From positions 372,001 through 413,962 of the forward strand of contig QPGO01000070.1 of the NCBI GenBank assembly GCA_008632985.1: 41,962 nucleotides of DNA, read 5' to 3'. The notes under the pieces were generated by a model. The model did no database searches. It saw only the letters and a program-made list of their open reading frames with translations, and was not told the origin of the DNA. Positions 1,469-39,717 of the stretch are shown here, in pieces; the stretch's first letter is position 1, and the number at the start of each line of letters is the position of its first letter. Source of the DNA: Psammoneis japonica (lineage: Eukaryota). Made by a program: the position numbers and the translations under genes.

Positions 1469-2615
<1,147 letters not shown>

Positions 2616-3231: not shown

Positions 3232-3681
3232 CTATAAAGGAGGAGGTGGCGACGAATACTGCGACAGGTCTACGCCCTGTCCTTGCTGCTGTTGCTTCTT
3301 TTCATTTGATGGTGCAATACCCAACATTGCTTTAATTCGTCGAAGCCGCGCCTGGAGAAACTTGCGGACGTGGTTCGACCGGTGAAGTTGCAAAACTCGG
3401 AAGAGGCAAGGCCGACGCATCCGGTGGTGATTGAAAGGCAGAAAACGCAAAATTGTCATCTTTGGGAGGCGATTTTTGCGGTGTGGATTCTTCTTCTTTT
3501 TTGGTTTCTTCTTCTTTTTGCTTTTGGGCGGTGCTTGTTGTTCCTTCTTGCTGTCATCAACCGGAGTAACCACGGATGACTCGGGAACTTTGCGTGGGGC
3601 TGGGGCACTTCCTCCTACTCCCAGTCCAAGCATATCCTTAAGGGCATTGGTTGCCTCCTTGTTTACATCGTCTTCGCTCAT
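3232..3681 (-). CDS. Small disordered protein with a PNRC/Edc1-like decapping-activator motif (two compensating frameshifts, probably assembly errors)
   Basis: An alternative frame at 3451-3392 reads FAFSAFQSPPDASALPLPSF, resembling the PNRC/Edc1 motif (YAGxxFxxSPxPSxLPxPxF). It is flanked by ALKDMLGL and LKAMLGI helical motifs and a Lys-rich tract. Confidence 0.65.
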   Translation of the reverse strand: MSEDDVNKEATNALKDMLGLGVGGSAPAPRKVPESSVVTPVDDSKKEQQAPPKSKKKKKPKKKKNPHRKNRLPKMTILRFLPFNHHRMRRPCLFRVLQLHRSNHVRKFLQARLRRIKAMLGIAPSNEKKQQQQGQGVDLSQYSSPPPPL

Positions 3682-5669
3682 GGTTTGCCTAATATAAAAG
3701 TCCTTCTCTGTCGCTGTACTGTAACCTGGTCGAATGCGGCGAATGGCCTTCCGCCAGAAAAATCTGAAAACACCGCGGACCGCGGGCGTGCAGTTGCGCG
3801 CAGCAATTACTTCCTGTGGATTTTAGGCGGGCGTGTTGCGAGCGAGGCAGGCAGGCAAGCGCAAGCGCAAGCAAGCAAGCGCAAGCCAAGGGGAGGCGAG
3901 GAGCGAGCGAAATGCAGCAAAAGCAAATTTCGCAAGCAGGCGCATTGCACCTGCCTGAAGACGACACAAAGAATTGGACGCTTCACTGGACGGCTGTGTC
4001 TCAATGTCTTCACAACCACACTCACAGAGAGTGAGGACAAAAGAATGTTTGAAGAAGAAGCTTCAATGATGGGCACCATCACACCCGTCACAATCTCTTG
4101 GGAGAGAGAAAAGTGTCTGCAGCACTCTTCTTCCCCTTGGGCTTCATTTGTGGATGTTCATCACTGGCAAACCAGGGCTCAGTGACACCCATGTGAGTGT
4201 CACAAAATGTCTCATCGGCATCATCTTCATCGTGTGCCTCTCTCCAACCAAATTGACGGCGGCGCTTGCAGCCCACAAATGGTCTGGTGTGTGCAACAGA
4301 CTGAGAGAGTGTGCCAGCACAGCGCAGCTCATTGTCATCAACAACACACTCTGCTGTCTCTTGCACTTGGGTGTTGTCTTTAGGAGGCTTTGTTGCCTGG
4401 TTTTTGACAAACTGACAAAGTCAAAGACATGGTTTGTGACGCAGTGTTTTCATCCATCATGATCCTCAAACAAGAAGTCCTGTGACAGGCCAGCCACCCT
4501 GCTTTGGATCTTCGTCATTGTTGAAACTGGCTCTCATGGCAACATCTGAAAGTCAAAAATCTTGATCTGCTGGCAATCCATTCCTCACATCCTTGTTCAG
4601 GTGCCAGGAGAATTTTGGACCTTGTTTTCCTCCTTGCGACCCACAACCATGCAAGCTGAGTCATGTCAGCTGCTGAAGTGCAGGTCATTTGAAGACAAGA
4701 GAGGGCTTCTTTTTGTCTGACATGGAGGCCACTTTTTTCCTCTTTTTGCCTTCTTGGGACTTGGTTTCCTTCTGAGAGTCTTTGTCAACAGCAACAGTGC
4801 TGGCAAAGAGAACAAGAGCAAGTGCCCAGCTTTGTGCAATGGCACAACAGCTGTTCTCTCACCACAAGCTCAAGAGGGGAGGACAACCAAGAACCTGGTT
4901 GTCAGCAACTTTGACCACAGAGACAGCTGGGTTTGTGCAGTTCTGTCTAGAGACACAACAAGAAAGGGACTTTGTCTTGGGAAGAAGCTTGGTGGCAGAA
5001 AAATGAAGAATGGCATGTCGCTGGCATTGAGAGCAAGCCACTTGGCAGCTCTCCAAGCACCACCACACAAGAGGGCTCTGAGAAGGTTCTCAGGCAATGA
5101 CTGTGCAAGACATTGCAGTTGAAGAGGATTGTCATCATTGGACAATGACTTTTGACAACATGGCAACAATCTGGGATTGCGCCATGTGATTGTCCTTGTC
5201 AGGTGGTGTGGAAACATGGTGGGTTGAGTTGCACATGCATCATGGCCCCTGCTTTCTTGAAAGTGAGCATGTGTCCAAAAGCACAAAAAGTTCAAACAAA
5301 ACCCATCATCTTGACAGAAAAGAAGTGTTGTGTCACATCCACAGATGGGCAAACAACAGAAAGACAAACAAAAGCAACAGGTGCTCAAATGTTCAAAGTG
5401 GTGGATGACCTCAAAACAGAAAAACAGCCAACTGACTGGCCAGGAGCCAATCATTTTTCAACCCAAAAATTGCCGGGGAAACTCACAATTTGGAGTTGTT
5501 GCAGAAAGCAATTTGTGCTTGGCCCCACAGCCTTTGAAAGCCATTGGGTGCCATTTTGCACAAAGACCACTTGCGAATTTGTTCATTTAAAAAGTGGTCA
5601 GCCCCAAACCCAGACTTCCTCCCTTCTTGTGTCACCAATCTGTCTCCAGTCTGGGCAAGGGCAGGTGCA

Positions 5670-5689
5670 GGGGGGGGGGGGGGGGGGGG
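5670..5689 (+). repeat. Poly-G tract (G20); a second G14 tract at 9175-9188
   Basis: Direct observation. Confidence 0.9.
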
Positions 5690-7357
5690 TGACACAGATG
5701 GGCAACAATTTCTTGTTTTGCTGCCATCAGCCAAAATGTCATGACAACCAAAGAGCGTGAGAAAGCTGCTCGTTTGTTGTGGTGAAGAGAAACCAGGGTG
5801 ATGACATTGTGCCAGATCTTTGCTGACCACTTTTTTAAATTTGGGGTGGGGAAGAAGAGGTGGCAGTGGCAGCATGCAAGTGCTGTTGCTGTGCATGTGT
5901 GTCAAGAAAGAAGGGGCCCCAAGCATTGTGGCACTCTTGTTTGCTGACTCTGTGCAATCTCCAGCATCTGCTGCACCAAGCTGTTGCCCCCCCAGCACAT
6001 GTGCTCTTGCAGCTTCTCCTCCTCCTGTGTTTTCAGCTGTGGCTGCTTGGGGCACTCTTTAAGAAATTGCCCAGCTGCTGGCAGTGGCAAGCTTCTGCTT
6101 GCAGTTGTTGTGCATCTTGCATGGAGCAGTCACTGCAAGGCACAAACTGTGCAAAAATTGATGCCACACGAGCAGGTCTCTGGCAAAAAAGCAGTGACAC
6201 ACAGATGTGCTCCAGCCCCAGGTGGGACTCTGCATGATGTTGGCCAATGGAATTCTGTGTGTGAGCTCTGCAGCTCATGCTCTGGCCAGCAGGTGTGCTC
6301 ATCTTTGATGCTCAAATGAGTGGCCAAGTTTGTAGAACATTTGCACCTCTTTGCTGTTGGAGTTCTTGAAAATCCACCTTCCCTGCACTGTTTTTTTCTG
6401 AGGACATTCAAGAGTGGCTTTGTGTGAAAAAATGTCAAAAGTTGTTGACAATTGGATCACCCAAAAATTGTGCACCACAAAATGACACAAAATTTTGCCA
6501 AAATGTCACAAAAAGGAGCACGCACAATGTGCGGTGCTCAACCAAAAAGCATCAATGTCACTGTTCAGCACTGTGCAAGGTCTGACCTGGAGTTGGAGTG
6601 TGTGCACAGGCCAGGTGGAAAAAAGGCATGTTGGCTGTTTGAAAGAGCAGCAGCCAACTCTGCACAGCCTTGAAAGACAGCATCTCATCCCACCATGTGA
6701 GATGTTGAGGGGGGCAACCTGCAAAACAGCTGGTGTGGGGTTGGCTGCAAAACAAGTGCAAAACATGCCAACAGGATGACTTGTGCAGTGGCAGGGTCAA
6801 CAGCAATGCCGCCAGTGTGGTGGGACCTGTCACAGCAGATGTGGCAGCTGGGAGCTCCACCACAAGCAGTGCTGCAACCACTGCCTCATCCATGACTGAC
6901 ACATTGACCATGGTCACCATGACAGCTGCCAGCACAGCCATGACAAAATGAGAAAGCTGTTGCCCCCTCTGTTGTTTTTGTTGTGGTCTCTAAACAGGCT
7001 GTGCCACACACTGTTGACAACAAGAATCATGCTTTCAAAACAGCCTGTGTGCTTGGGTTGCTGAAGCACAGAACTCAGCATGATCAAGAACATTGCAAAG
7101 CACCCACTTGCCTGTCCCCTGCTCCTCAGATTGTTTTGACACAATGGCTCACCACACACAACAACAACAGCTGGCTGCTGATGAAGCCACCATGAAAGTC
7201 TTGCAAAAGCCTTGCTCCTGACTTCAGCCTGTGCTGTTGTGCCTGCCATTCACTCCGCAGCTTGGATGACTGTCCAACTGGCAGCTCCTGCCTCAGCTTC
7301 TCATTCTTTGTTGGTCATGTTTGATGGAAAATTGGCTGCTCCAATTTTTCATTTGTT

Positions 7358-7360
<3 letters not shown>

Positions 7361-7390
<30 letters not shown>
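7361..7390 (+). repeat. (GA)15 microsatellite
   Basis: Direct observation. Confidence 0.95.
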
Positions 7391-7394
<4 letters not shown>

Positions 7395-9699
7395 GCACAC
7401 AGTGGAGTGAAGAAATTCAAGAGAGACTGGATGACCACAACATTGCCCAAAGAGAAGAGCACAGCAACTCTGCAACAGTGGGCATTGAGCCAATGCTGTG
7501 CTGCAAAAAGCTGACTTTTGTCCCTCAGTTTGTGGCTGGTGCAAAACCAAACCAAAAAACAAACAAGAGGAACAGCAGAAATGTGCCACACTGGCAGAAA
7601 CACAATGGCACAGGGGGCAAGTCATGAAAGCACTGGGTGAGTGTTTGGATGAATTGAAGTGCAGCAAAAACCTGGCACTCATGACAATGCTGTCTCTTGC
7701 TTGGAAGGAAATTGCAAAGAGCAGACTGACCAAGAATGGCAAAAGCACAATGCAGGGTGTGGGAGGGGAGACAATGGCTGAAAAAGCATGAAGAGAAACA
7801 GAGATGGTGGAGAAAAAAGCATCTGCAAAACAAGCAAAGCCAACAGGAGGACAGAAAAACAAGGAAGGCTGCAGCTGCTGCACTCAACAGAAGCAAGGGG
7901 CAAGAACAAACAAAATCAAGAAAACACAGCAATCTGGTGTGTGAAATGTGAACAAGTGGTGCATGTGGAGCCAAAATTTACAAACTCAGAACAATCTGTT
8001 TGTGAACAAGTTGTTGCTTGGTGCAGGTAGCCAGCGCCAATGAGGATGAGTTTGCAATTGTCCAGTGGCAAATGACAATGAAAAAGGCTCTGAACAAGCC
8101 CCATTTTGTGGAGCACACTGCCAGAGCATTGACTGGGAATTGTTGGCTGATGTTGTTCTGGTGCAACCAGGCTCAAATGAGAGCAAAATTTGTTGGCTGT
8201 GTTTTGTCTGCTTTGACCAGCATCAAACATTGGCATTGGCAAGAATTGGCCCATTGTTGTGGCTGGGCATTTGGGCAAGAAAAATTAGAGCAAGTTCATC
8301 AACAGCATGTTTTCCCACCAATTTGACTGGCAACTCACTTGAGACTTGTGAAAAGTTCTTTTGTTCCATCACACCAAGCAATTTTAAACTGACAGTGTCC
8401 AGCACAAAAGCACTGTCACCAAGCAAGCCCAGAACCTGAGCAAGTGCAGAAACATCTTCCAGATTGTGGGCAGGGAGCAAATGTTGCTGTTGCAAGTTGT
8501 TGGTCAGCTTTGCTGGAAAAAATGAACATTTTGGGCATTCTCCACTGGCGTTGTTGTTTTGATCATGCTCAAAGATTAAAACCACATCCCACATGCAGCG
8601 TTCAAGGAAGCCAGTGTTCTGTCACCTCATGCAGATTTGGATGTTGTGCAAATTGCCCAGGGAGAGCTCAATGTTTGGCAAGACTTTGAAAGCAAAAATC
8701 TTGGCAACCATTTGTGCAGTGTCGGCATGGATTTTTCAAAGCTGTTGGTGTGCCACATCTGTGCATTGTGCACTGTGCACTCACACAGAAAATTGGCACT
8801 TGTGGGTCCCAGTGGGGGTGCTGCAGCCCAAAGCAAGCAGATGTGACATGTGCTGGTTGTTGCTCGCCACTCCATGAAATGTGATTGAGCGCATTGCCAG
8901 CAGCAGCTCAGACCATGATCAGTGCCACACATTTCTCACTTTGGCACACCCACTCCTCTTCTTGCAGTTTTTGCAACAACCAATCTTGCTGTGCTCATTT
9001 TGAAATCATTTTCTGCAACACAGCCAACTGCCCATGCTGCTGTGGCATTTTTCAAGGCACTGGAAGACAACCCTGACATCTTTCACATGTTTGTGTGGGG
9101 GTGTGCTGGCAAACACCTGGACCTCCTTGACAGCAGCACCCTTGGTGGGTCCAGACAAACAATGGCAACCATCAGGGGGGGGGGGGGGTGCTGGGGAGGG
9201 GGGTTGGCATGTTCTTTTCATCTTGAGCTGGGTCAGCAGCAGCTCACTTTTCCTTGCACTGCTGGCATTGGCAAGTGCTTCAGCAGCTGCAAGCAAGCTG
9301 TGCAGCACATGCTTTTTCTGCACAATCTAAGAACCTGTCACACACTCACCTTTTCATCTCCACTTTGATGGGTGGGAGCTTGCAAGCCATGCATTGCTTT
9401 GTCTCTCTTCTTCATCAGACAAGTCCAGCAATGAGTGCAATGTGGCTTTCATGAAGAGCACAGCTGCTTGGTGGCCAACAAGTGGCTCTGCTGCACACAC
9501 TGAGCAATTTCCAGACACACCAGACACCTTGCTGGCAGAGAAAATCTTTTCACCCTTCTTCCAGCACCAAGCTGTGCACTGCACGTGGTGCCATCAGCTG
9601 CGACACACAGCTCTCAACACATGTGCAACCTTGAGCAAGGAAATGGGTCAGAGTGATCAGTCTGCTGCTGACACAGCTGCAACACCTGTGCACAGAAAA

Positions 9700-10280
9700 T
9701 CTCATTGCAGAAACAATGGAGACCCCAGCAGCCCAGCTGGGATTGATGACTGCACAACTTGGCAATGTGACAATCATGGTCATCAGTGTGGGTTGCCACA
9801 AAAGGCAAAGATTGGTTGCTGAAATTGACAAAAATGGCAGCCACCTCAGACTCCTTTGTGGAGCCAGCTCAAGGTGCAGCATGCTTCAGAAGAAGTGGGA
9901 ACCCCAAAACAAGCATGCCAGTCATTGCTGCTCATGGTTTGTCTCTTTCAAGTTTCAAGAGGTGCACATGAACTGCCATCGAGACCAAATGTCCTTTGCA
10001 ATGGCTGCTCCAACACTTGCAGCAAACAGCAAAGTCAGAGCACAGTGTTGGATGCTCACAAAGTGCTCCCAGCAAGCCCAAGAGTTGAGTTGGCCTGATG
10101 TTGACTTAACCCAATGCTTCAATTGTGCATTGCAAGCATGGGTGTGGAGTGGAGCTGCGGATGCCAGTGATCAAGCAGAGGAACTTGTTCTTCAGCCTCA
10201 TGAACACATTTGCCTCAATGTCATTTCATGCACAGCTTGCTTGGAAGCCCATGCCAACAGTCACGGGCTGGAGAGAAGAC
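9700..10280 (+). pseudogene. Decayed pentatricopeptide-repeat (PPR) gene fragment
   Basis: PDVDLTQCFNCALQAWVWSGAADASDQAEELV and LNVISCTACLEAHANS resemble stramenopile PPR repeats (PDxxxYNxxIxAWxxSG...AxxAExLL; PNVISYTxxxxAYA), with Y>C and Y>H changes. The 5' boundary is approximate. Confidence 0.55.
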
Positions 10281-10617
10281 AAGGATTTTGAACCCCCCCC
10301 CTCAATTGCTGCAGCGCTTCAACCTCAGCGCGCAAACTGCCCTGTCACACATGCAGCACCCAGTGTTTTCTCGTGGATGCCTCGCCTTCTTAAGCAGTTT
10401 TCTTTTAGTGCTCGAAAACACTTTTTTTGACATGGTCGTTGCCATCCTCAAAAATGTTGAGTGAGATACCATACAGAACAAAGGACAACCCAACCGCGAA
10501 CGAGATCAATGAAAGTTATATTTATTATGAGCTTTGTTATCAAATTTCTTGTGCACACTTGTTGTTTTCCACTTTGTCACAGAGCAGTTGAAACCACACC
10601 ATTGTGACGTACTTGAG

Positions 10618-11805
10618 CTAGAACAGTCCCGGCCAGTTGTCCCAGATCTCCTGAGTCCAACATAGTTCTTCTAGTGCCTCTTGCTGTTCAACAGTGAGTT
10701 CAGCCCACGCCGCGTCGTCGGACGCTGGTGGACAATTTATCCCTATTCCTTCGTCCCAGCACTCCCGCGTGTAGCCAAGAGTCTCAAACGCCGGCGTCAA
10801 TCCTTCTGCTTCTAGCTCGTCCCAAGTATAATCAAGGTAGTGATTGGCATAGCAGTCCCAGGTGCCTTCAAAATAACCAACAATAGACAAATCATCTCTC
10901 TGATCATCAGACAGACTCTCCCAAGCCAAGCCCTCCACATCAGCATTTAAACCGCGGATTGGCCATAAGACATTGTTGTAACCAACTCGCTCAAGTGCTT
11001 CTCGAACATCCGTTGGTAGATCTTCCCAAGCAACACCGTCAAACGGCTTATCAGGGAAGGCTGTCGGGCTTGAAGTAGGTGCATCGGTTGCGATAGTGGG
11101 CATTGGAGTCGGCGGCTCCGTTTCATCAGGCGTCGGGGGTGCCGTAGGTGACGGAGTCGGCGGCTCCGTTTCATCAGGCGTTGGGGGTGCCGTAGGTGAC
11201 GGAGTCGGTGGCTCCGTCTCATCAGGCGTCGGGGGTGCCGTAGGTGACGGAGTCGGCGGCTCCGTTTCATCAGGCGTCGGGGATGGCGTAGGTGACGGAG
11301 TCGGCGGTTCCGTTCCAATCGGCGTCGGGGGTGCCGTAGGTGACGGAGTCTGCGGCTCCGGTGCATCAGGCGTCGGGGAAGGCGTAGGTGACGGAGTCTG
11401 CGGCTCCGGTGCATCAGGCGTCGGGGATGGCGTAGGTGACGGAGTCTGCGGCTCCGGTGCATCAGGCGTCGGGGATGGCGTAGGTGACGGAGTCTGCGGC
11501 TCCGGTGCATCAGGCGTCGGGGATGGCGTAGGTGACGGAGTCTGCGGCTCCGGTGCATCAGGCGTCGGGGATGGCGTAGGTGACGGAGTTGGTGGTGGTG
11601 CTATTGCCACAGTAGGGGTTGGAGTCGGCGGTGATAGACTTTCTTGAAGGGCGCGCATCCAAAAGGCCTCTACTTCATCAGCAGTTAGCGTATCATCGAT
11701 CCCTAAACTCGCTCGAAGACTGCCTTTCTCATTCGTAAAGGCGCCATTCACTGGGAAATGAGAAGTGAGCAGGAAGGCTAGACGTAGAATAGCAATCAAC
11801 CTCAT
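10618..11805 (-). CDS. Secreted Pro/Thr-rich mucin-like protein with an RXL motif and C-terminal Trp-rich repeats
   Basis: ATG at 11805 gives a signal-peptide-like [21 protein letters not shown]. This is followed by [11 protein letters not shown] (RXL), about ten 16-aa PT repeats, and four WxxL...(G)Y/W...W(D) repeats. Intact ORF, TAG at 10620-10618. Confidence 0.85.
11105..11590 (-). repeat. Coding tandem repeat, 48-bp unit, about 10 copies of two subtypes ([16 protein letters not shown] and [16 protein letters not shown])
   Basis: Unit ggcgtaggtgacggagtctgcggctccggtgcatcaggcgtcggggat is repeated almost perfectly. Confidence 0.95.
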
Positions 11806-12210
11806 AGTTTCTTCGTCTTGTGAATGCGGATGTAGAATGAAGAAAGACTTCAATTCTCACGATGTGTGGTGATGTTGTGAGAAGGACCTATTTCCGCCAA
11901 ATTGACATGCGACATTATGCGGTACAACATTCAACATACATATTATGCATACATAATACTTTATTGATACGAAACCCTGATCAAACAATTCGGTTCGGAA
12001 GAAAAATATATAAATAATACAACGGTCATCGGCGATCCATACACATATGAGGATATTTCCTGGAGGCAATAGTACTAAAATAATCGATTTATTACATTTA
12101 AGTAAGTAAAGAAATGCACATGAAGATCGTTAATCGCCAGAAACCGTTTTGAGTCGTTGGCGTGCTGTACATACTGTACACAACATCATACTGTGTGTAA
12201 CGGTTGGGCC

Positions 12211-14065
12211 AGCCAGAGGTAGGCCTCGAGGTACAGCAGGTGCACACTTGCCGGTACATGTGTCGCCTGTTCCTTGCTGTAATTCACCACCCGCGAAACC
12301 TTTGCCCGCACACACCTTGAACAGAAAGCCTCCAAGTTCCGCACCAACCTCGACCGCCTTTCATCACGTCCACATGACACCCAAACCAAAAGCTCCCTCT
12401 GCTGCACCTGTGCCCTCCCCACAGCCTCCGGCGGCGTTGGCTGTCGATCCGCGTCTGCCTCCGCCGCCCCCTTCCTCATCTCTCAACTCGCCCACTCCTT
12501 TTGACATGCCACACACCACAGACCAGCCATGGGCAACAACTGCTCCCTTGAACTCCCTCCCTTTTGCACTTGCTCTCTCCACACCTGGGCTGCCTCCCAC
12601 CGCCCTCCATGCCTTCATCAAGTCTTCCAACACTGTGGAGCAGCTGCCTCGCACAATCTTGACCCTCCTCCACCCTCTCTCAAAGCCTTTGTGAAAACAC
12701 ATCCATTGCGCAACCTTTCCCACACCTTGCGCCATGCCCACTTCCAACGACAACTTGAAAATCTCCAACAACAAGGACCGCCGCATGTTGCGTTTGCGCT
12801 CCCATCCCCCTCCTCTCTCCACTTGCAAGCCTTGCTCTCCACTCCCTTGCCCGCTCTTTGCCCCAACAATGCCTGGGCCCCAAGCAGTTCCACCTCATGC
12901 TGCAATGCAAACTGCAACTTCCCATCTCACCTCACCAGCTCCAGCCCATCTCCTGCCCCTCTTGCACCGGCACCATCAACCCCTGCGGTGATCACGCTTT
13001 CTGCTGCCGATCCCTTCCTTGGACACAAAACAACCATGTCCAGTGCCATCCGTGACAGTCTGTGTGTGACTCTTCAGACACTTGCCCCTCTCTCTGGCAT
13101 TTGCACTGACTCCTCTGTCATCCACCAATGCCTTGCAATTGATGTCACCATCCCGAAACCTCCTCCATTGCCTGCTCCTGGCTTGCCTGCCCCCAGCACC
13201 CTCAACCCTCATGCCAAGGCACACCATGTGAGCACCAAACAGAAGTTCAACAGAACCCATGAAACCCAACACAAAGCCACCCTTACATCTGCCCTCAACA
13301 AAGCTGGTGCTTGCCTGATTCCCTTCACCATTGACCACATCTGGGAGCCCCCAGCTACTTCACCCACCGCCTGCTTTTTGGCACCAACCAAGAACACCCT
13401 GTCCATGCCCCACCCGCCCTTCCTGGACCACTGAATCTTCCTTTCAACACCCAGCTGCCCATGCTGCACACGCCTGCACCCAATTGTCACCATCTGCCAT
13501 TTTCCCCACTGCTGCTGCCGCTTGGCAAACCCTGTCCACCAAACGCTTTGGCCTGACCCCCACCACACTTCTGCTCCATCACAATGGGGCCTTCAAAGCC
13601 TGAGCCTTGTGATTGCCAAATCACTTGCTGACCATCTGACCCACACTGCTCCGCCAAACTACAATCCCAACTCTCCAACCCCAGCTCAAAATCCATCCCT
13701 TTTCCAGCCTGTGTGACTCAGTTCCACCCTTGCTTTGTGTCTGCCCCTCCCCCCATGCCACTGGGTGACGTTGCACATGAACTCCTCATGTGTGCATGCT
13801 GCCAGGCAGTTTCCCCCCTGACAAATGACCACATGCTTCAAACACTTGGCTGCAACCTTGGCCTGTCATCTTTCTTTGCATGCCCTTTGCTTTGCCTCCT
13901 CCCTCCACACTCCTTCATCTCCTGCTCCCTCCACCAAATGCCCTGTGTCCTGCATTCTGGACCCCTTTTGCTCTTCCTTTGCTGCAGCTGTCTCTGTGCC
14001 TTCTTCTGCTGCTCCCTTCTGCCACTCTCAACAGGCTCTTCAACTCTGCGCTCAGTTAAAAAAAA
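12211..14065 (+). mobile_element. Decayed, internally deleted non-LTR retrotransposon with a restriction-like endonuclease (CRE-like)
   Basis: Motifs in order across frames: QxKLxLPI, the CCHC knuckle CPSCTGTINPCGDHAFCC (about 12954-13008), HKTTMSSAIRD, LAIDVTI, KQKF and LIPFTIDH. A pyrimidine-rich 3' region ends in A8 at 14058-14065. No RT domain is visible; the 5' boundary is approximate. Confidence 0.65.
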
Positions 14066-15791
14066 CACATCAGGTGATGGTGCTGCACACCCAAGAGGAT
14101 TTCACAGACCACTCACACCAAAGAACAATGCATCACAAGGGGATGCTGTGCTGGCTGGCTTGCACTCAGAAAGAGTGGCTCAACAAGGCATCACAAGATG
14201 ACGAAGCAGACCATGTCCCCAGTGCCAAGGAGGAGGCTGAGCCACCAAAGCAGGCCAGCCCTTGTTGGCTCCATCTGTTGTGCACCACTCACTCACACAA
14301 CAAATCCATGGCAACAAAGCAAAAGGGAGATGACTGAGCAAATTTCATGGTGGTGCTGGACAGAGCAAGCATGGAAGCCAAGGCAACGTCAGCTTCTTTG
14401 AGCACAGCAGAGTGTGAAAAGCTGTGAACTGGGGTTGATGAGGGCCGCTTCTTTCAAACACTCTGCTGGCTCAAGCAAGAAAGCATTTCACAAAGCCTGT
14501 TGATGCACTTGTGTGGCAAGACAGAAATGGGGCACAAGAGCTTTGGAAGTTGTGGCATTGAGCCTCCTTTTGTGGCAGACACAAGTGTGCAAGTTCTTGA
14601 AAGCAGATGTGGAGAAGGCAGGAACTTGGCACTCTCAAGGCAAAGAGTCCACAGGTCAGAGCAGCTGCTGTTGGGAAGCTGCAGAGGCTGCTCGCTTCAT
14701 GCACTGCCAGGCTCTGTTTGTCTGTGCAGCTCAAAGAATGGTTGTTGTGCACATCAAAAGTTGCAGAAACATGCTGTGAGATGGGACAGTTTGGAGGTGG
14801 TGGCAGCCAGAGTGGGAAAACAGAAAAAGGGTCATCAGCAATGGAGAACAATCAACAAATGACAACACCACAGCTGACTCTTGCCTTTTTTAGAGGACTT
14901 TGCTGTCACTGGAGCTGTTGGGCCACTGCTCAACAGCTGATGTGGTGTGCTGTGGGGGGGATTGTGTTGACCCTCCATCAAATCTGAGTGCAATGCACAA
15001 TGGAGGCACTGCACAGAGTCTGCTTCTCTTGACAGTCCAAAAATCACATGCTGGCTGCACACCAAGGAGAGCTCTGCTGGCGGTGCACTCAAAGATGAGA
15101 ACACAAGCAGGCACATGTCAAAAGTGGCAAAAGCTGCATTGCAGGAGAGTTTGTTGAAGGTGGTGGCCAAGCAAGAAAGCAAGAAGAGTGCCAAAGCCAG
15201 TGGCAGTTGAAGTGGTGCATGACATGCTGCATCTGAGTCTTGCTGTTTTCAAAAAATAAACTGTGCTCTCCATGGAGCACCAGCTGCTCTGCACCAGTTG
15301 AGATGAGGAGGCTGTGAGATTGTGCTGATGCTGCACTCTGCAAAAGTGGCAGAAAAAAGCAGAGGCAGACAGGCAACGCAGCTCACAAGCAATGTTTGCC
15401 TGGTGCTGACTTTGCCAAAGCAGACTCAAGTTGACTCCTGCTTCTCATTCCATTCACTCTGTGCACAAGTGTTGTGTGGGAAAAATGTGAAAGCAGCAGA
15501 GCACAAAGGACTCATTGATGTGTGGAGCTTGTGATGACCAGTGCTTGCAGGGGGCACAAAGCACACACCATGAACTGTGCAACTCTTTGCCAACTCTCAA
15601 GAGGTGTGACTCAACCTCTTCAGATTCCACTGAATCTGCTCTCATCTGTTGCAGAAGAAATGACATGAGCAACAGAAAACAAAGGCTGTGAGAGCAACCC
15701 TGCTCATGTCAAGTCAGCCAGCAGCAAAAGAAAGAGGAGACATTCAAGGTGACAGGCAGCACATGCCACCTCATGACTTGACCCAGGCCCA

Positions 15792-16226
15792 ATGAGCAGT
15801 GATCACCTCCATTTTGTGGGAAAAAACCGTCAAACAACTCAATTGATGGATGTGTTTCAATGATCACATCTCAACCACAAACCCTGTCATCCAAACAAAC
15901 CCTCAGCACATGACCCCCCTTTTGTGTGTGAGCAATTTGTTGCGCTCATTCTCCTTGTTGGAAAATGCAATCTGAGCAAAACAACGCAGACTTTGTGCAA
16001 ATTCTGCACAAGCAGGATTTGTGCCAAGTCCACACCAAATGACTGAGCACAAGTTTCTGGAGAAAACAAATGGCAGAACCAAATTCCTTGCAAATGAAAA
16101 GGGGGGCAATGCACTGAGAGTTTGTTTGGATGATGGGATTTGCAGCTGAGACATGATCATTTGAACACATGCATCAACTAAATTGTTTGATGTTTTTTCC
16201 ACAAAATGGAGGTGATCACTGCTCAT
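15792..16226. mobile_element. MITE/foldback element of about 435 bp with long terminal inverted repeats
   Basis: Perfect 28-bp inverted ends atgagcagtgatcacctccattttgtgg / ccacaaaatggaggtgatcactgctcat. The imperfect arms extend about 145 bp (to about 15935 and 16080). No coding capacity. Confidence 0.85.
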
Positions 16227-19154
16227 GGCAGAGATGCTGTGCTGCCAGGCCCTGCTGCTGCTTTGTGCCTCAGGGCTCTCAGCCATTGATGTGTTTGGTT
16301 TGGTGTGAAGGCACAAGCACCAGAGATGAAGCCAAGCACAAGCAGCTCCAATGACAAAAAACCTGTTGGGAGACACAACAAAAATGGGGCCATTGATGTG
16401 CAAAGTCTGCGCCAGCCTTCACACCATCATTGAGGTTTGCTTGCTGCCACAATGATGTCACTGGGTGCTCACAAACAAGAAGTGACCAAAGTCAGGTGTG
16501 CACTGAGTGGTTGTGTGAACTTTTGGCAATGAAGCCACTTTTTGCCCCACTGAAATTCTCTGAGGTGCCAGCAACACAAAATGCTGCCACAGCACTTCAT
16601 GCTGCATTGAGCCATCTCATTGTTTTTGTCATTTGGGAGCATGCTTGGTGTGCAAGCATGCATGTGTAAATGACAGCAGATGATTGATGCACCACTGGTC
16701 TTCTTCTTGCATGTGCAATGGGTCCTCTAAGTCCTCTGCACACCACCTGGCTAAAACAAATGATTGCTTTGTTTTTTTTTTAAATGCAAAATCTCAAAGA
16801 CAAAGACAAAGTCAAAAACCAGCTTTCATCATGCCACCTGGGACACTCTTCCACAGGGCACATGACAAAAGCCAATTCTTGAGGATGCTTTTGTCATCAT
16901 GTGGCCTTTTGAGCAACTGCAAAATGGCAACAAGTGGCTCTCCCCATGCAAGCAACAATGTGGTGCACAAATCCTTGCAAGGTGTCAGAGCTCTGGCTTG
17001 GATGTCATTTTGGAATGTGAAAATTTAGCTGCAGGAGAAATCACCTTTTTGGGACAGCCATTTTCTCTTGCAAAGCTGTTTGCTTTCCACCCCCCTCCAG
17101 CAGCCAACATCACATGCATTTGACCTCACTCAGCCTGCCACAAGCTGTCTGTCAGCACATGGGTTGTTGCATCTGTGGTCTGGTGTGAGGACATCCTGAA
17201 AGAAGTGCACATTCTTTTTGAGCCAGGTGGCAGAGCAGCCCTGTGTCTCCTGTGAAAGAGAGGATTGTCCTTGCAATGCCAGGCACCAGCAGCATCCTCA
17301 TCAAATGGAAGAATGACACAAGAAGCAGCTCAACTGGATTGAAGAGCAAAGCAGCACTGCTTGAGAGTGGCTGGGTCCACAGAGTCTGTTGGTGCAGGGA
17401 AAAATTGTTTGCTGCAGGGCAAGACATGCCCCAGTGCACTTTTTGGTTGCTGCAGAGTGCAGCTGTGCAAGCCTTTGCTGCAACAGCATCCACCCTTGCT
17501 GGGCCAACAGCTGTTTGGCAAAACTGCCATTTTGGTTCTTGGTTTGAAAAGCAATTTCTTGTTGTCACACCAAACGTTGCAAATGCAGCTGCTGCTCTTG
17601 CTTTTGAGCCATTGCCTCAAATGGCCAAGACAATGAACAGCCCTGTGGCAAATGATGATTGTTTGCTGGCTGGACTTGCAAACAATTTAATGAAGCTGAG
17701 ATCAGAAATGCAAATGTGGACAAAACAAAACATGTGGCTGAATGGTCATGACACAAAGACAAGGCACAAGGCACCCTGGGCACAGGAGCCCATGGTGCAA
17801 GAGCAGCGGCACATGACCCACATTTGTTGCCACAGATGTGGTGGCATGTGCAGCTGCTGCAGGGAGCTGCCAACCAGAAGATGTCAAAAACCAGCCAAGC
17901 ACCTCCTGTTGTTGCTTCCATCATCTTGTCATTTTGACAAAAAATCAAAACATGAGGTTCCCAAACTGAGCCTCTGTCATGCACGCCAACACTGTCATGC
18001 AGGCCAGCTCTGCAGTGTGGCCACCTCAACAGCACAGCTGACTTGTTCTCATCTTCTGTGCTGCAAGAATGTGGCCTTGTGCTTCAAAAAGAGCAGCGGC
18101 CCATCACCTTGCTTTCAGCTTGCTTGTTGCAGGTTGTGAGTCTTGGGTTCTTCACTGAAATTTGCATTCTCACATTGTGCACTTGCACAAGCATCACATT
18201 TGATGGCTGATGCTCCAACATCAAAACAAAAAGAGTTTGTGCACAGGCTCCTGTGGCTCTGTGTGCCACAAGCTTCTGCCTCAAAAGCTGGGGTGTGTCT
18301 GTGCCAAACATTTCTTCTGTTTTTCTGCACAAAAATTGTTCATTGTCAGCTGGTCAAGTTGCTCATCAATGGGTGGTGTGCATGAATTTTTTGCACAAAA
18401 GTCTGGTCCTTTCATTTTTTGTTTTTGTGTTGTTGCTGCTGTGGCAAGCCAAGTCAGAGTTGGGCAGAACACTGTTTGCAGCTTTCTTTCAAAAAGCAAG
18501 CCCACTTGCTGTGTTGTTTGCAAAAAGACCCCTGCAGCACCCTCTTGCCATTGTTTTTGTAGTGTCAAAGGCTTTGAGTCAGAGTTTGGGCCACCCCATC
18601 AGCTGCCATTGCTCTGCAAACTACCCATCAAAGTGCTGCTGTCATCCCAGCCATTTGCCATTGTGGTGGGCAGGTTTGGCTTGGAAAAACATGCTGCTTT
18701 TCTCATGCTGCTCAGCACTGCAGCTGCTTTGCTCTTCTGTCTCTGACTCTGTCTCAATGCCCACTCTGTCAGCTTCTTGTCCTGCTTGTCAACACCTTGG
18801 TCCAAGGTGGCTCTTCCTGACAACCCTTGAATGTGCCAACATCCAAATCCTTGATTGAGGCTGTGTTGTGGCTGGTTCTGTGGTGCTTGTTGCTTCCATT
18901 GTTTTGGATGAATCTGACTGCCCTCAATGTTCATGCTGCTTTCCAAAGTCTCCCCCAACACTTGGAAAAATGACAGAGCACTGCAGAGATGCCAGTTTGG
19001 CTGTCAGTGCTCAGCCAGCTCCTGAAAACAGCACACAACCACCAGCACATGCACAAAAACTCTCCCAAGCCCCCAGTTGCCAACTTGGGCTCACTTTTCA
19101 ATCATGACCCATCAACTTCTGCTGACCAACAAAGTCAGCATTGGTGAAAAAGAA

Positions 19155-20960
19155 TTGCAAAAAAGACCGCAGGGTTCAAAACTCATGGGCTGTTGCTGAC
19201 AATGGCCTCAGAGCACAATGCAACATGCAAGCTGGCTGCCACCTCAGAGCAAACTGTCTCCCTCCATGGCAACCTGGAGCCAAGGCAGCAATGCAACACT
19301 GGTGGCACAAACTGCAGCCACAGATTGTCCACAACAACAGCTGTTTCAATGGCGCAGTGGCTGGTGGGTTGTGACCTTTGTCAATGCCAGGGAGAGCAAC
19401 AACCTGTCAGACTCAACACACCCAGAATTCTGACTGTGGCCATTTCCCTCAATGGAAGTCCAAGCCTTGCACACTCCAAGGGGACACATGGCACAAAATG
19501 GAGAAACGGTCAAAGCTGATGACCTGGTGGTGAAAGGAGCATTCTTGACTCCAGCACAGTGACATCTCCTTGAGAAGAAGAGAACACAACAGATGGTGGC
19601 AGTGAGACTCAAGCACATTGTGGCAGGAAATGTCAAATGGGCCCCAAGAGATGATGTCAGAAAGCTGCCCAACTCTTGCAACAGGCACCACGCCAAGAAG
19701 CACAATGCGTGCTGCCTCAGCAGCAAAACCGAGCATGGCTCTTGGCAAAATCTCTCTCCACAAAGTGCTGGAATGTGAGGAGATGAGCAATGACAACAAT
19801 GACCGCACATGAGGGTGGCAATGACAGTGACAGAATGACCAAAGAAACCAAGGAAAGCACTAGCTCTGACTCACCCAGCAGCAGTGAAGGTGAGCTTGAC
19901 ATGTGGACAAAGTCATTTCTGCCCACAGAGGACAGAATGACAAGAAAATCATGACAAGTGCCGACACAGGCACAAACAAACAAAGCAACTTGTGAACTTG
20001 ACAAGTCAGAGAGCCATGTGATCACTTGCTTGCATGTGAGACAGGGCTGCACCAGTGTTGCTGAGGGAACAGCATTGACAAAACTGACAGCTGCACTTGC
20101 TGCTGATGCAGGGCAGGCAAAACACATGCCAACAATTTTCAAGTTTGTTCGCTGCACATTGACTGCCAAAAAATGTTTTAAAAATTGAACCTTTGAAAGT
20201 GCAACACCCATGCCCAAAATTCATCATCATTGCTCCAAAGCTGTGTTCATGTGTCAAAAAAGCCAGACAAACAGAGAGATCCTGAGTCACATTTTCTCCA
20301 GACTGCCAAGCAATTTGCCAAGTGACAAAAAACCATCAAGCAGCAATGCAGAAGATGTGGCATTCAAAAATGGGCAAAAAGCACAAGGCCGGCACAGGCA
20401 AAGAGCCACACAAAGATGGAAAGTGCAAATGTCAGGAAAGGGAAAGGCAGGTGCCTCTCCTGCTGAAACAAAAAACACCTCTTGAGAACAAGTGATTTGC
20501 TTTGGCAAACTTCAAACCTTGATGCTGGGGGCACAGCAAGCAAGCTGGCAACAAACATTGCTCCAAGTTTTGGTCAAGAAATGGAACCCAAACTGCAACT
20601 GGGAAAGTGTTGTGAGCAAGAGAATGACAATGTCAGACACAAAGCATTGTGAAAAGACCACAAGGTTTAAAGTTCATGGGCTGTTGCTGACAATGGCCTC
20701 AGAGCACAGCACAACATGCAAGCCAGCTGCCACCTCAGAGTGGGAAAGGTGGCTGTGCATGTTGAGTGTCTTGTGCATGTGAGCCCTGCCTCAGCAAACT
20801 GTCTCTTGTCTCTCCTGTGGCAACCTGGATTCAAGACAGCAAAAAGCAAAACTGGCACACACTGCACCAGCCACAGATTGTCCACCACAACACCAGCTGT
20901 TTCAACAGTGCACAGCGGCTGGTGGGTTGTGACCTTTGTTGCTGATGTCAGGGTGAGCAG
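19155..20960 (+). repeat. Diverged direct duplication (about 19155-19400 and 20645-20960)
   Basis: Both copies contain tcatgggctgttgctgacaatggcctcagagcaca...acatgcaagc...ctgccacctcagag, then cagccacagattgtccac and ggctggtgggttgtgacctttgt. Confidence 0.85.
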
Positions 20961-22499
20961 CCAGTGGCTTGGCAAAGCAGCCCACCAAAATGTTCTTGGC
21001 TGGACAGCACACACCATGAAAAAAAAAACTTGCTCCCTTTGCAACTCAGCTCACCAAGGACAGTGGCCCTGTCCACTTGCTCATGACCACTTTGTCCTCC
21101 TTCTTGTTTGCTTTCTCCAGCACCAGTCTCCAACCTTTTCCTTGCTGTGCCATGTTTGAAGGTGAGGATTGCTGTTACGCTGAGGGCTGCTTGCACATCA
21201 GACAACCCCAAAAACACTGGCAGCAAAGGCCAAGGGGAGTCCACAACAGTGTGGTGTGTGATCCTCCTCCTCAGCATGATTTGGCCAAGAGGATCAAGCC
21301 AAGAAGCAAGAAAGTGGGGACAAACTTTCAGGCATTGTTTGTCAACAGCACACCACCCACACCATGACCACAATCACAAATCACCACAAAAACAGCAGCC
21401 CAGTCCAAAACAAACACCACTCATTGGCCAGTGCTGTCCTGACTCCACAGGTTGACTGGGGTGCCAATTTTCTCCAAAGTTGGGCTTCTTGTGGGAGACA
21501 AAAGCCAAACTTTCTGGGAACATCTGACAAGTGTCACTGGTGCAACATGACAGGGGCAAGAGCATTGAGACAAGGCAGTGCAAAGAGTGTGTTGAGCATG
21601 ATGGCACTGCTCATTTTCCAGAATCCCCCAACTTTCTTGTGTTTCTCATCAGAGGCGGCAATGTGGTGGTTTCCACTTGCCTTTGTAAAATTTTTAATGT
21701 GCACCGTTAAAATTGTTAACAAGCAGAATTGAAAAATTGCCAGCAAAAGCGCTCCACAAAATGAAGCTGTTTCTTGAATTTCATCTGATGTCTCATTGAC
21801 TTTTCTTGCACAAGCTTCAATCAAATGCATGCAATGTCACATTTAATTGGGGTCAAAATCCATTTTTTGTGATGCATGGTTTGGTTTCCTTTTGATCACA
21901 ATCAATTTGAACTTGGTTTTAACTTTGTTCTCCTCACTCACGTGTGCGTGTCTTTGAACGTGTGCAGTCTGCAGCACTTCACGCATGCACGTGACCCACC
22001 TTCATTTTTCTTCATGTTTCCCAGATTTTCGCAGCCCGTTGGTCTACGGCGTTTCAGCACATGTTTCACATGCACAATTTTCTGCACACTTCATAACAGC
22101 ACACCCTCTCCCCAAAGTTTGAAAAACGAGAGCATGCACTGTTGTGATTTACATGGATCCCACGTGTGGTCGCAAATCTGCAAATCGACAACCGGCCATG
22201 GCGGTGAAAGACTTTGCCCCATTGGCCGATGACAGCAGCTCAATGCATGGTGAAACCTGCCATCCTTCTGGTTGGTCAAGATGGGGTTTTATTTGGGTGC
22301 AGCTTGAATTTTGTGATCGCGAGTGTGCTGTCACGAATCTGCCGCATCCAGAATGCTGAGCTCTGGCGTGTTGTTGTGTGTTGTGTGCACGCACGTCACA
22401 AACTTGCTTTTCTGCAGCATTGGTGTAATTGCGCATGTCAGAGTTTTGCATCCAGAATCATCACAAGTTGCCACAAATTACACTGTTCAAACAAGGCAT

Positions 22500-22760
22500 G
22501 TGCAAAAAGAGGTTCATTGGTTTTTGACACATTCGCTGACAACACATCCGTCTTCTCCAATTTCCATGTCCAGATCCAGAAAGACTGCAGGTGGTGCTTG
22601 TTCCTGCAGCTCTCAGAATCACCGCATGAAAAGTTCTTTGCCACATGTGAAACTCTTCAAAAAAGGTGTGCACAAAAAGCTTCATTCATTTTTGATGTGT
22701 TCACTTACGTTGCATCTGTCTTCTCCAATTTCTACATCCAGATCCAGAAAGACCACAGAG
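22500..22760 (+). repeat. Direct repeat, period 168 bp, two copies
   Basis: catccgtcttctccaatttccatgtccagatccagaaagac (about 22545) versus catctgtcttctccaatttctacatccagatccagaaagac (about 22713). Confidence 0.85.
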
Positions 22761-22904
22761 GCAGAGAGTGGGGAGGCAACCCATTGGAGGTTGCCTGAGT
22801 TGTTGGGCTCATTTTAAAAGGCTTCCCAAGTCTCTCCGCTGTTTGTGGTCAAGAGCAGGGGGGGGGTCGACTGCAACAACCGCAGCAGCTGCCAATTCCA
22901 TGTT

Positions 22905-23415
22905 GATGGGTTGGGAGCTGGCAGCAGAAGCTCCCAAATTGGCGGCGGCAGATGCACCTGCAAGTCCACATTGCGGTTTCAATTGGTTGCTGTTGTTGTC
23001 CTGTGCACTCTCACAAAAAGCATTTCACATTTGTTTGCAATGAACAAGGTGGATCAGAGCAATGTTGCTTCGCCTGGTCCAGAATCAGCTTTGCGGGGTT
23101 GGGAACCGGCGGCAGAAGCGACCAAATCTGCCATGGCGGATGCACCAGCAAGTCCACATTGTGGTTTCAATTGGCTGCTGTTGTTGTCCCATGCACTCTC
23201 ACAAAGCATTTTGCACTCCTTTGCAATGAATGAGGTGGATCAGAGCAGTGCCACTTCACCTGGTCCAGAATCAGCTTTGCGGGGTCAGGAACCGGCGGCA
23301 GAAGTGACTGAATTGGCAGCAGCGGATGCACCTGTGAGCCCACATTGTGGCTTCAATTGGTTGCTGTTGTTGTCCCACACACTCTCACAAAGTGTTTTGC
23401 ACTTCTTTGCAATGA
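22905..23415. repeat. Tandem repeat, about 186-bp unit, nearly three copies (probably a 62-aa repeat of a dead ORF)
   Basis: The anchor cacattg lies at 22967, 23155 and 23341. The copies share ttcaattgg..gctgttgttgtcc and ggtggatcagagca...cctggtccagaatcagctttgcgggg. Confidence 0.9.
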
Positions 23416-23809
23416 TTTGCCGTTGTGAACAGAGTGTCACTCCTCGTTCGAAGGCATTGCATTTGGATTGCTTGCCACCATGTCTTGGCGTCAAGATTGT
23501 GCTCTCAACTGCGTGGCAGTGCAAGTGGAGTTCAAAGAGGTCCAAGCTTGTGCTTGTGAAGGCAGTGGTGCATTCCACTTTCGCTGCAGTGAGCTCTGGC
23601 TCCACCATTTTGTGCATCAGATTTGTGCCTTTCTCTTGGAATTCAGTCATTGCCTCTTTGAATTCATTGACAAGCCTTTGTCTCCATCTGCGTCATTCAA
23701 ATTAAGCGCAAACAACAAAATAGAACGTTTGCAATGCAAATGATTTTAAATTGCAGGTTTTGCGGGAATGGAGGGTGGGCACTCTCATGGGGAAAATGGT
23801 TGGCTGCTT

Positions 23810-24008
23810 CGCAGTGAATGGTGTTGCCTCACAGGACAGTTGCGGGCTCCACAGCAACAAAGTTCATCTTTCATGGTTGACAAATTGTCACCATGCACAC
23901 AACTGATGAGGTTTGAAACCACAAAATTTTTAACCACGACAGATTAAAAAATTTGCCACAAGAAAGTCGGTCTGATCACTGCATTGCGCGCTCTGATGCT
24001 GTTTTGTT
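23810..24008 (+). repeat. Dispersed repeat of about 200 bp, copy 1 (probable transposon end)
   Basis: Shares tgtcaccatg..cacaactg..aggtttgaa.ccaca, cagattaaaaaatt, caagaaag and gatcactgca.tg.gcgctctgatg with 30503-30702. Confidence 0.75.
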
Positions 24009-24899
24009 TGGATGGGTGGCATGCATCAGGGGCCACAACATGGCAGTGCTTGCTTTCATTTTTGTGTTTTGTCACTTTGAACTCAATGCATTTTGTTCTT
24101 GTTAATTCTGACATTGCATTCAAAAGTTGTTTTTGTGAGACATTGTTTGTTCTGTGCATTGCATGTGGGTCATCATCACCTTTTGCTCTCAAAATTGTTT
24201 TTGATCAATTTTTTGCACATCACATTCACCTTCAATTGCTCCTTTGTTTTGTGATGACATTGTCTCTTTTGTTTCAATGCATTGGCTTTGAAAGTGCTTT
24301 TTAACAGCACCACCCCACACGTGCACCACCACACTTGCTGGTGTCCTTTCCACACCCAAGTCATCCCCCACACGCACCTGCCTCATTTTTTCTTATTTTC
24401 TTCCAGCTTTTCAGTGCATGGCTCTCCACTGGATTTTCATCACCTGTTCTGCATGTGCAAATTTCTGTGCATTTCACAACAGCACATCCTTTCCCCAAAA
24501 TGCATTTGACCAGAGCATGTGCTGTTGTGGTTCACGCACATTCTGCGTGAGTCAACAACTGACTTCCCACCATGGCAGTCAATGACTTTACCCCATCCCA
24601 CAACAAGGTCGACCCCAACCCTTCCTTCCAATTTCCTGATGAGTGCAATTTTGATGACAGAACATTTTGCCAATGGCTTTGGAGTGGAGTTGTTTGGACC
24701 AAAGCTCAAAAGCACAATTGCAATGCGTGCCTCCAAAAAGCAGTTCTTGGAGACAACGAACTGGTCTCCCTCTCTCCAGAATTCCTTGCACTTCCCTTCC
24801 TCTGCCACAAGCCAAAGTCACATCACATCCCTCATGTTGCCAAAGCCATCCACACCAACAATGTTGTCAGGAAAACTCTCTGACATCCTGACATCTGGT

Positions 24900-27800: not shown

Positions 27801-28257
27801 ATTTGTTGCCACAGACTTGTCCACCTCTCTCTGTTCCGGACTTGTTGCTGACAATGATTTAAACTCATGCTCGGAAGAGTCCTCCATTGTTGAAGACAAG
27901 GACGAATCAGAGCATGAAGGAGTTGTGGATGACAATGAGTTGAGCTCATTGTCCAAGGAGTCCTTGTTGTCAGCAACTGTTCCTTCTGGAGCAGAGGCTG
28001 ACAACGAGTTGAGCTCATTGTCCGAGGAGTCTGCCATTGACAAAGTGGAAGACCCGCCAGAGATGGCGGAGTTTGACAAATCAGAGGAGTGCCAAGCCAT
28101 TGTCACAGCTGACATTGAATCCATTGCATTGCTGGAACAGTTTTACGATGATGACATGCAGTGCATGGCACCAAAGGAACAACAAAGGAAACCACCAGTC
28201 ATTTCATCATTGCCAAATTTTGACCTGGATGAATGTGTGGATGCAACTCTTTTGTGA
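24900..28257 (+). pseudogene. Large decayed plus-strand gene or genes of unknown function, with an acidic repeat tail
   Basis: A chain of overlapping plus-strand ORFs (24939-25490, 25740-26513, 26423-27289, 27127-27780, 27817-28257) with protein-like composition once H/C are read as former Y/R. Confidence 0.55.
27660..28035 (+). repeat. Four diverged copies of a DNELxSLSEES-coding motif
   Basis: gacaatgagttaaactcactctcagaggagtcc-like units at about 27694, 27850, 27931 and 28000. Confidence 0.8.
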
Positions 28258-28381
28258 GTTGAGCATGTTTGGCACTGTCCTGTTTGACTTGCTGCTGCTT
28301 TTGACTCACCTTTTTTGAGTCAAACTGTGGCACACAAACCATCTAACAACACACTTTTGTCACACATTTGTCACACTTACA

Positions 28382-39700: not shown

Positions 39701-39717
39701 TGCTCCACGGACGAAGC

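Follow-up and report, generated by a model that had tools for sequence, protein, structure and literature searches.

Based on the composition of a contig end from the diatom Psammoneis japonica, in which long domains depleted of TpA and CpG are bordered by margins (halos) that have lost TpA and kept CpG, we asked whether the process that removes TpA reaches further than CpG decay or acts sooner. The window, by which we mean the whole analyzed stretch of 41,962 nucleotides, is the end of contig C70 in an assembly of 91.4 Mb and 597 contigs. The adenosine kinase shows 87% identity to its Seminavis robusta counterpart and 77–85% to other named diatom proteins, which identifies the host as a diatom and probably as a raphid pennate. 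Outside the three long domains of the window, the observed/expected ratio (o/e) is 0.63 for TpA and 0.98 for CpG; inside them it is 0.04 and 0.11, CpA/TpG reaches 1.85 and GC content is unchanged. Our preferred explanation, to which we assign a probability of about 0.65, is that a halo is the low-dose rim of a single field, within which TpA mutates fast enough for its loss to run ahead of CpG decay. The domains and the gene between the first two are as follows.

3827..10382, no strand: domain 1 by the TpA HMM; CpG-poor part 3994-10288
10618..11856, minus strand: unconverted host gene for a Pro/Thr-rich repeat protein, between domains 1 and 2
12284..35008, no strand: domain 2 by the TpA HMM; CpG-poor parts 12819-21925 and 22412-34594
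36779-41959: domain 3, with the fifth halo at its left edge

Segmentation was extended to 642 kb (242 kb of C70, 200 kb of C1 and 200 kb of C5), with TA and CG treated by separate two-state models, each as its share of TA+CA+TG+CG steps. This yielded 40 TA-poor domains of at least 600 bp, which occupy 262,019 of 641,962 bases, about 41% of the sampled DNA. Six of the 40 lacked any CG-poor part, and no CG-poor segment was found outside the TA domains of the 642 kb. The held-out replication, 150 kb of C12, gave 13 TA domains, two of them without a CG-poor part, and no CG-only domain. Some young domains were in the halo state, TA-poor and CG-rich, from end to end over their whole 4–11 kb. Conversion was confined to regions of repeats and mobile DNA and spared host genes; host gene copies and near flanks were also hit. 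As single cases, the 11-kb domain at C70:296579-307801 has TA at 0.15 and CG at 0.79 of baseline throughout, and a search for a close copy of it found none. A 0.86-kb duplicate pair of 90% identity (C5:149337-150188 and 161176-162031) lies beside domains and outside TA-poor segments, so duplication by itself may not be enough to trigger conversion.

Among the 80 edges of the 40 domains, 50 belong to domains of at least 3 kb with 1 kb of free flank; 13 of these, with CG-rich (young) cores, were set aside, and 37 were analyzed for offset. The sequence-only reading had named statistical coincidence of the TpA and CpG boundaries as the outcome that would speak against it. Coincidence was not seen: the CpG change-point lay inside the TpA change-point at 30 of 37 edges (mean 197 bp, median 150 bp), compared with an offset of 1.7 ± 12.9 bp and a maximum of 35 bp in 200 simulations with coincident edges. 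Offsets were negative at the other seven. On the held-out C12 edges, six of eight offsets were positive (mean 80 bp) and two negative. The five window edges gave offsets of 369, 107, 643, 525 and 448 bp, the first two being the distances by which the fitted CpG edges of domain 1 lie inside its TpA edges. Relative to baseline, CG was about 0.15 at 1 kb inside the TA edge, 0.50 at 100–200 bp and 0.87 in the last 100 bp, a gradual climb over about 800 bp (0.14 to 0.87) with no step; the profile is anchored on the TA edge, and the TA curve is therefore sharp there by construction. Halos are real as a class and uncertain at the focal site, which has the following features.

3235..3681, minus strand: putative host gene start (ORF; first ATG 3681-3679) in unconverted DNA
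3780..3972, no strand: focal halo, single-copy host flank at a repeat end; GC 0.59; no TA in 3826-3972
3847..3885, plus strand: short-unit run of GCAG/GCAA/GCGCAA
3973..5544, no strand: one end of an interspersed repeat with the adjoining 1.6 kb; CG declines through its first 300–700 bp

The focal interval 3780-3995 had been described as dense in CG with only two TA, both TTA, and the count agrees: 20 CG and exactly two TA (3808 TTAC, 3824 TTAG). The halo is the upstream region of the putative gene at 3235..3681 on the minus strand, for which no Pfam match was found. A query of 3700-4100 gave 14 other genomic matches, each starting only near 3970, and the repeat end at 3973 is common to at least 15 copies with unrelated flanks in the ten compared; 3780-3972 is therefore single-copy host DNA. 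Its CG is 1.5 times baseline. Accurate as the description is, the halo is weak on its own, because 5.1 TA are expected in 3780-3995 at the unconverted baseline (TpA o/e 0.63; P = 0.12) and 8 of 52 GC-matched windows were as TA-poor (two TA or fewer), as were 40 of 1245 windows of the same length. Every control window had the length of its halo and lay over 1.5 kb away from the nearest domain; because the five halo intervals were chosen by eye, the resulting values are optimistic. That both remaining TAs are TTA fits the survival of slow contexts described below, with two counts only. We regard the halo at 3780-3972 as probably a domain rim lying on a GC-rich promoter, at about 60:40 against plain promoter composition. 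The proposal that the run at 3847-3885 is a converted GTAG/GTAA repeat was not supported. Runs of at least three GTAR units were absent from 357 kb of unconverted DNA, in which a GCAA trimer is present and two-unit runs number 63 for GCAR versus 29 for GTAR; moreover, the run contains no GTGR unit, the product of about one third of conversions in such contexts.

Four further intervals had been proposed as similar halos; they correspond to the following features.

10270..10440, no strand: second halo; 2 TA, 7 CG; indistinguishable from controls
12284..12819, no strand: third halo, within a non-LTR retrotransposon remnant (similarity 12298-14039), at its truncated end
34223..35460, plus strand: broken copy of an SNF2-family helicase gene, lying across a domain edge, with the fourth halo at 34594-35185 mid-gene
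36779..37183, no strand: fifth halo, at the left edge of domain 3

The likeness holds clearly for 34600-35160 and 36740-37060, since none of 235 and none of 130 GC-matched controls, respectively, were as TA-poor. The interval 12290-12490 is borderline (1 of 19 controls), and 10270-10440 falls within the controls (73 of 897). The TpA front follows neither element ends nor promoters, because the halos sit in host flank, in the middle of the SNF2-family copy and, for the third, within a LINE remnant and not in host flank. The SNF2-family copy keeps TA and tyrosine codons at its 3' end. Polarizing its halo by homologs was tried and given up, as these are too distant (29–67% identity in pieces, few conserved Tyr), and searches found neither a close DNA copy nor an intact close parent of the copy at 34223..35460. 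Two SNF2-family paralogs (L117 and L118; 37% identity) likewise lie in TA-poor, CG-rich DNA.

The relative rates of the two losses were read from 20 non-LTR retrotransposon copies, nine of which, in two close groups (A and B), were scored. LINE columns fell into a class of CG with its decay products and a class of TA/CA/TG. All four states, as left by a double change TA>CG, occurred in a single group A column and nowhere in group B; formation of CG from TA by a second step, confined to that one column, was rejected. In the two groups, TA-origin sites survived at 53/305 and 61/240, and CG-origin sites at 621/864 and 585/701, giving TpA:CpG log ratios of 5.3 and 7.6, which are lower bounds because sites converted alike in every copy are missed. 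The remaining transitions amounted to 0–0.8%; TT>CT (AA>AG) reached 0.3–0.8% per copy versus 75–83% at TA, and CA>TA 0–0.1%; TpA was lost. Transversions made up 11 of 241 states at TA columns. Over evolutionary time, as recorded in the copies, the TpA transition was about 200 times faster than other transitions. An independent element lies at the end of the window:

39941..41962, minus strand: young Ty1/copia RT region, wholly TA-poor and CG-rich

This region was polarized by 120 outside homologs. Its 15 conserved Tyr columns now read His (7), Cys (3), Tyr (4) and Phe (1), and 15 of 17 conserved Arg codons (all CGN) were kept, for a TpA:CpG ratio near 10. As for a spread of the process to other organisms, none of the 120 copia RT homologs had less than 60% Tyr at the conserved columns, a weak test since top matches favor intact elements. 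As read from the aligned copies, TpA>TpG/CpA and CpG>TpG/CpA are two distinct one-step transition classes, and TpA is lost 5–10 times faster than CpG. The earlier suggestion that the TpA process acts sooner is thereby borne out in both LINE and copia copies, together with the occurrence of TA-poor, CG-rich domains and the absence of CG-only ones. Its companion, that two separable activities are tied to one chromatin domain, stands as regards the two substitution classes and the shared domains (no CG-only domain among 40 + 13), the chromatin itself being our interpretation.

Flanking bases modulated the TpA step. TA survival in young domains was 0 for ATAT, 0.006 for ATAC, 0.04 for GTAC, 0.35 for CTAA and 0.42 for TTAA; old cores kept 63% of TTAA and 0.4% of ATAT, with the slow contexts TTAA and CTAA at 26–63%. 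At asymmetric sites, the T after G was changed more often than the T after C (96 to 47) or after T (20 to 9). In these alignments the TpA change is a single step that favors T-A-pyrimidine, as read on the strand of the A, and spares TTAA. Strand-coordinated runs were absent, as neighbors changed in the same direction at frequencies of 0.45–0.57 versus 0.50–0.53 under the null (all P > 0.16), although repeated rounds of conversion could mask such runs. A copy that keeps a TA also keeps slightly more of the nearby CG (difference 0.041, P = 0.012).

Reach and speed were compared in an edge model composed of a logistic exposure profile for each edge (free position, width and depth), a global TA:CG ratio k and an outward TA shift. 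The outcome for shift and ratio depends on the form of the fit. With one flat TA floor, k = 2 and a shift of 0–200 bp were preferred; this form was set aside because the slow contexts TTAA and CTAA keep 26–63% of TA even in old cores. With context-specific floors, the 37 edges were best fitted at shift 0 and k = 8–20, a shift of +100 bp being about 10 and one of +200 bp at least 40 log units worse. The combination of k = 4 with a 100-bp shift was only 10 log units behind the best fit, and sharp two-boundary models were at least 55 log units worse than a soft single field. The 13 young-core edges gave k of about 12. On the eight held-out edges, with the parameters of the first set, shift 0 and k = 8–20 were again best, with +100 bp about 10 and +200 bp at least 24 log units worse. 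In simulations with one data set for each of four truths all were recovered, including a true 200-bp shift, and the real likelihood surface was closest to the simulated k = 10/shift 0, part-way to k = 4/shift 100. A TpA reach longer by at least 200 bp is thus rejected by the fits on 37 and 8 edges, for which the simulations had power; extra reach of up to 100 bp is disfavored less firmly. A longer reach is not needed to explain the halos. The statement that the TpA process reaches further can be dispensed with, given that zero shift is best on 37 + 8 edges, that whole domains are in the halo state and that the TpA edge at young insertions lies inside the element. One field with a fast enzyme is indistinguishable from two concentric fields with different thresholds.

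Two repeat families of different age were compared at their host junctions. For the younger LINE family, 15 3' ends were placed, six of them host-flanked; flank TA was 0.66–1.25 of baseline and 0.88 in the first 100 bp inside, which puts the TpA edge inside the element with no flank loss. The older family, which ends at 3973 in the window, offered 15 ends, eight of them host-flanked, with flank TA of 0.61–0.68 over 600 bp and flank CG of 0.95–1.04; inside the element, CG was 0.40 and then 0.1–0.2. The flank of one older-family end (L002) is partly converted, and without it flank TA is 123 of 1026 steps, or 0.73 of baseline. For k = 10, CG is expected at 0.96 where TA stands at 0.65. Two ends (L003 and L123) had no halo. 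Judged from the two families, halos widen with insertion age.

According to the single-field explanation, repeat DNA would lie in silenced domains in which the intensity of silencing, or the time spent under it, fades over some hundred bases at the edge, as the mutational scars suggest. Two mutational chemistries operate within the same domains, as the copies show, namely CpG>TpG/CpA decay and the faster TpA>TpG/CpA step. The former is most likely deamination of 5-methylcytosine, with the mark placed by a DNMT5-type enzyme as in other diatoms. The latter may be the work of a domain-recruited TadA/ADAT-type adenine deaminase acting on DNA (A>inosine>G), the agent that we somewhat favor among the candidate chemistries. 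Because TpA is lost faster than CpG, weak or recent exposure would remove TA and leave CG, over the full length of young insertions as well as in the rim where old domains fade out; with age, this rim would creep 300–600 bp into the host flank. The domains themselves are presumably heterochromatin with CG methylation.

The genome has 27 matches to the C5-methylase domain (PF00145). Its deaminases resemble a housekeeping set that includes ADAT2 (L111) with HAE, PCIMC and an Asn-bearing motif; since this ADAT2 is an ordinary tRNA-editing enzyme, the motifs do not single it out. Among individual loci, four C5-methyltransferase gene copies (L036, L037, L038 and L042, on C301 and C297) are amplified and TA-converted, with TpA o/e of 0.07–0.11 and CpG o/e of 0.66–0.74, and are apparently broken. 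Domains of dCMP deaminase occur in tandem at a locus (L106, L109) that is found on two contigs (C41, C317) with identical scores.

Among known systems, RIP of ascomycetes is a dinucleotide-specific transition hypermutation of repeats that leaks into flanks; it changes C:G>T:A and creates TpA. The process described here is, in contrast, A:T>G:C and destroys TpA (CA>TA 0–0.1% per copy), and no evidence was found here for a sexual-stage or pairing trigger of the RIP kind. RIP was rejected as an explanation since the spectrum does not fit. Unlike APOBEC-like processive single-strand deaminases, the process left no strand-coordinated runs. The closest counterpart was reported in Bigelowiella natans (Mettrop et al., bioRxiv 10.64898/2026.01.13.699255, main text). 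Of 302 new mutations in B. natans, 231 were located in two regions of integrated viral DNA; with a single exception these hypermutations were A:T>G:C, the A:T>G:C changes all being at TpA, and TpA-poor clusters occur genome-wide. The de novo rate was about 1000 times background and the process was active in only some lines, with an ADAT2 carrying HxE, PCxxC and Asn as the candidate enzyme. The main text of that preprint makes no mention of CpG, diatoms, boundaries or flanks, and its supplementary context table may bear on the comparison. As far as that text goes, the two systems share TpA>TpG/CpA change in foreign or mobile DNA and TpA-poor, CpA/TpG-rich clusters, with other A/T contexts spared here, and an ADAT2 with HxE/PCxxC and Asn is also present in this genome. 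In contrast to B. natans, as portrayed there, the present host is a diatom with about 41% of sampled DNA converted near saturation, in LINEs, copia, other repeats and host gene copies; the domains also undergo a slower CpG decay; the measurements extend to edge gradients and flanking-base preference; and the rate is inferred from copies, whereas in B. natans it was measured directly.

In Phaeodactylum, DNMT5a carries CG methylation of transposons (Hoguin et al. 2023, PMC9998398). The CpG>TpG/CpA loss found here, as read from sequence alone, is similarly confined to repeat domains. Methylation of the DNMT5 type would account only for the slow CpG process, and TpA is not mentioned in the portion of that article used here. 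The engineered TadA8e produces genomic A>G/T>C changes and prefers TA (PMC13225742, in the part consulted); it is laboratory-evolved and acts on single-stranded DNA, and its TA preference is common to the process here. Our searches turned up neither diatom TpA loss nor halos of this kind in the literature, most subscription journals being outside their coverage, and the only TpA-specific A:T>G:C mutator of foreign DNA that they returned was that of B. natans. What is new here is the form that the process takes in a diatom, one other alga being known to have it; the halo is a consequence and not a further system.

The offset between the edges would also result from two separately targeted activities, with the TpA mutator on a broader mark (histone, small-RNA zone or repair tract) that extends 100–200 bp or more past the 5mC boundary. 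The mean offset of 197 bp, the loss of flank TA with CG untouched at older insertions and the near absence of G:C>A:T from the B. natans TpA process, as given in the main text of the preprint, are compatible with this, and so are the flat-floor fit, which permitted k = 2 with 200 bp, and the solution of k = 4 with 100 bp at 10 log units from the best. We nevertheless consider it unlikely: a 200-bp shift, which the simulations would recover, costs at least 40 log units on the 37 edges and at least 24 on the eight held-out ones, sharp two-boundary models cost at least 55, the TpA edge at young LINE ends lies inside the element, and ratios of 2–4 conflict with the 5–10 obtained from copies. The sequence-only reading had itself raised the alternative that halos are simply GC-rich promoters; taken more widely, they would be unconverted GC-rich promoters or repeat ends of naturally low TA. 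For the focal halo alone, with its GC of 0.59, its position upstream of an ATG and its 8 of 52 equally TA-poor controls, this is a serious possibility, if not our first choice, and the 73 of 897 controls of 10270-10440 likewise speak for it. For the class it is very improbable, as 34600-35160 (0/235) and 36740-37060 (0/130) lie beyond all their controls, the former inside a helicase coding remnant, and the offset holds at 37 + 8 edges with a TA-share denominator (TA/CA/TG/CG) that transitions leave unaltered.

The geometry of a single field could be retained with a different chemistry, in which a thymine lesion (e.g., an oxidized or alkylated T in TpA pairing with G) replaces adenine deamination. 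T>C and A>G are inseparable in double-stranded DNA, and the absence of strand runs fits a slow, site-by-site mark on duplex DNA, whereas a processive single-strand adenine deaminase would give such runs. Hydroxymethyluracil is said to favor TpA in a dinoflagellate, which would favor this chemistry; a Tet_JBP search gave no match in this genome, but also none in the control genomes. The TA preference is, on the other hand, a known signature of TadA-type deaminases in the part of that literature cited above, and given the geometry we hold the lesion possible and rather doubtful. Error-prone repair patches of the polymerase eta type, arising from T:G mismatches after 5mC deamination and spilling past the methylated zone, would yield both a rim and the local coupling of TA and CG. 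Polymerase eta makes A>G changes at WA (TA and AA) with transversions, as in somatic hypermutation; the contrast of 0.3–0.8% at TT>CT (AA>AG) with 75–83% at TA, the 11 of 241 transversion states at TA columns and a TA loss far above the CpG events meant to trigger it make this explanation highly improbable. Least credible is a base-calling or assembly artifact at modified bases. About 6.0 kb of 4187-10600 is covered by six run X1 contigs, each departing from the assembly at no more than one letter, and among the copies a given column may read CA or TG, with states common to sister copies; run X1 may be the assembly's own source sample, so its agreement speaks against assembly error and is not independent support. 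A run contig over 2963-4196 differs from the assembly at 2999-3473, with none of the listed differences in 3780-3995.

Returning to the single field with a fast TpA mutator, the shared domains, edges and local intensity of TpA editing and CpG decay point to a common silencing mark, a constraint on how the TpA process is targeted. This explanation predicts a ratio of about 5–12 and 5mC that is graded over 300–800 bp at old edges and not at young ones. As the process leaks into host flanks, transposon insertions can rewrite neighboring promoters. A far-reaching extension, which we advance tentatively and consider improbable as a whole, is a natural DNA adenine deaminase of diatoms that is guided by chromatin, responds to the silencing mark read by the CG methyltransferase and rewrites TpA with T-A-pyrimidine as its context. 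Its scars and those of CpG decay would form a two-handed clock that dates insertions and tracks, at a resolution of 100 bp and by sequence alone, how silencing spreads into host promoters; with B. natans, this would indicate a SAR-wide A-to-G defense of the genome.

Several minor observations concern the window itself. Within the host gene between domains 1 and 2, a tandem Pro/Thr-rich coding repeat (10982-11647) is unconverted though flanked by two domains. Domain 2 has an internal seam at 21600-22500 at which both TA (mostly TTAA) and CG go up, perhaps a nested-insertion junction or an old edge; C70 172001-172789 matches window positions 22488-23274 at 92%. Across the host flank at 1500-3620 the assembly and the run contigs disagree at many positions and by small gaps, but hardly at all in domain 1; another haplotype or assembly errors would account for this, as for the additional base that both runs show after 3329. 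The window contains 102 open frames of at least 120 aa, and across 4000-34600 the loss of TAA/TAG stops has left many long, spurious, tyrosine-free frames that form a trap for annotation.
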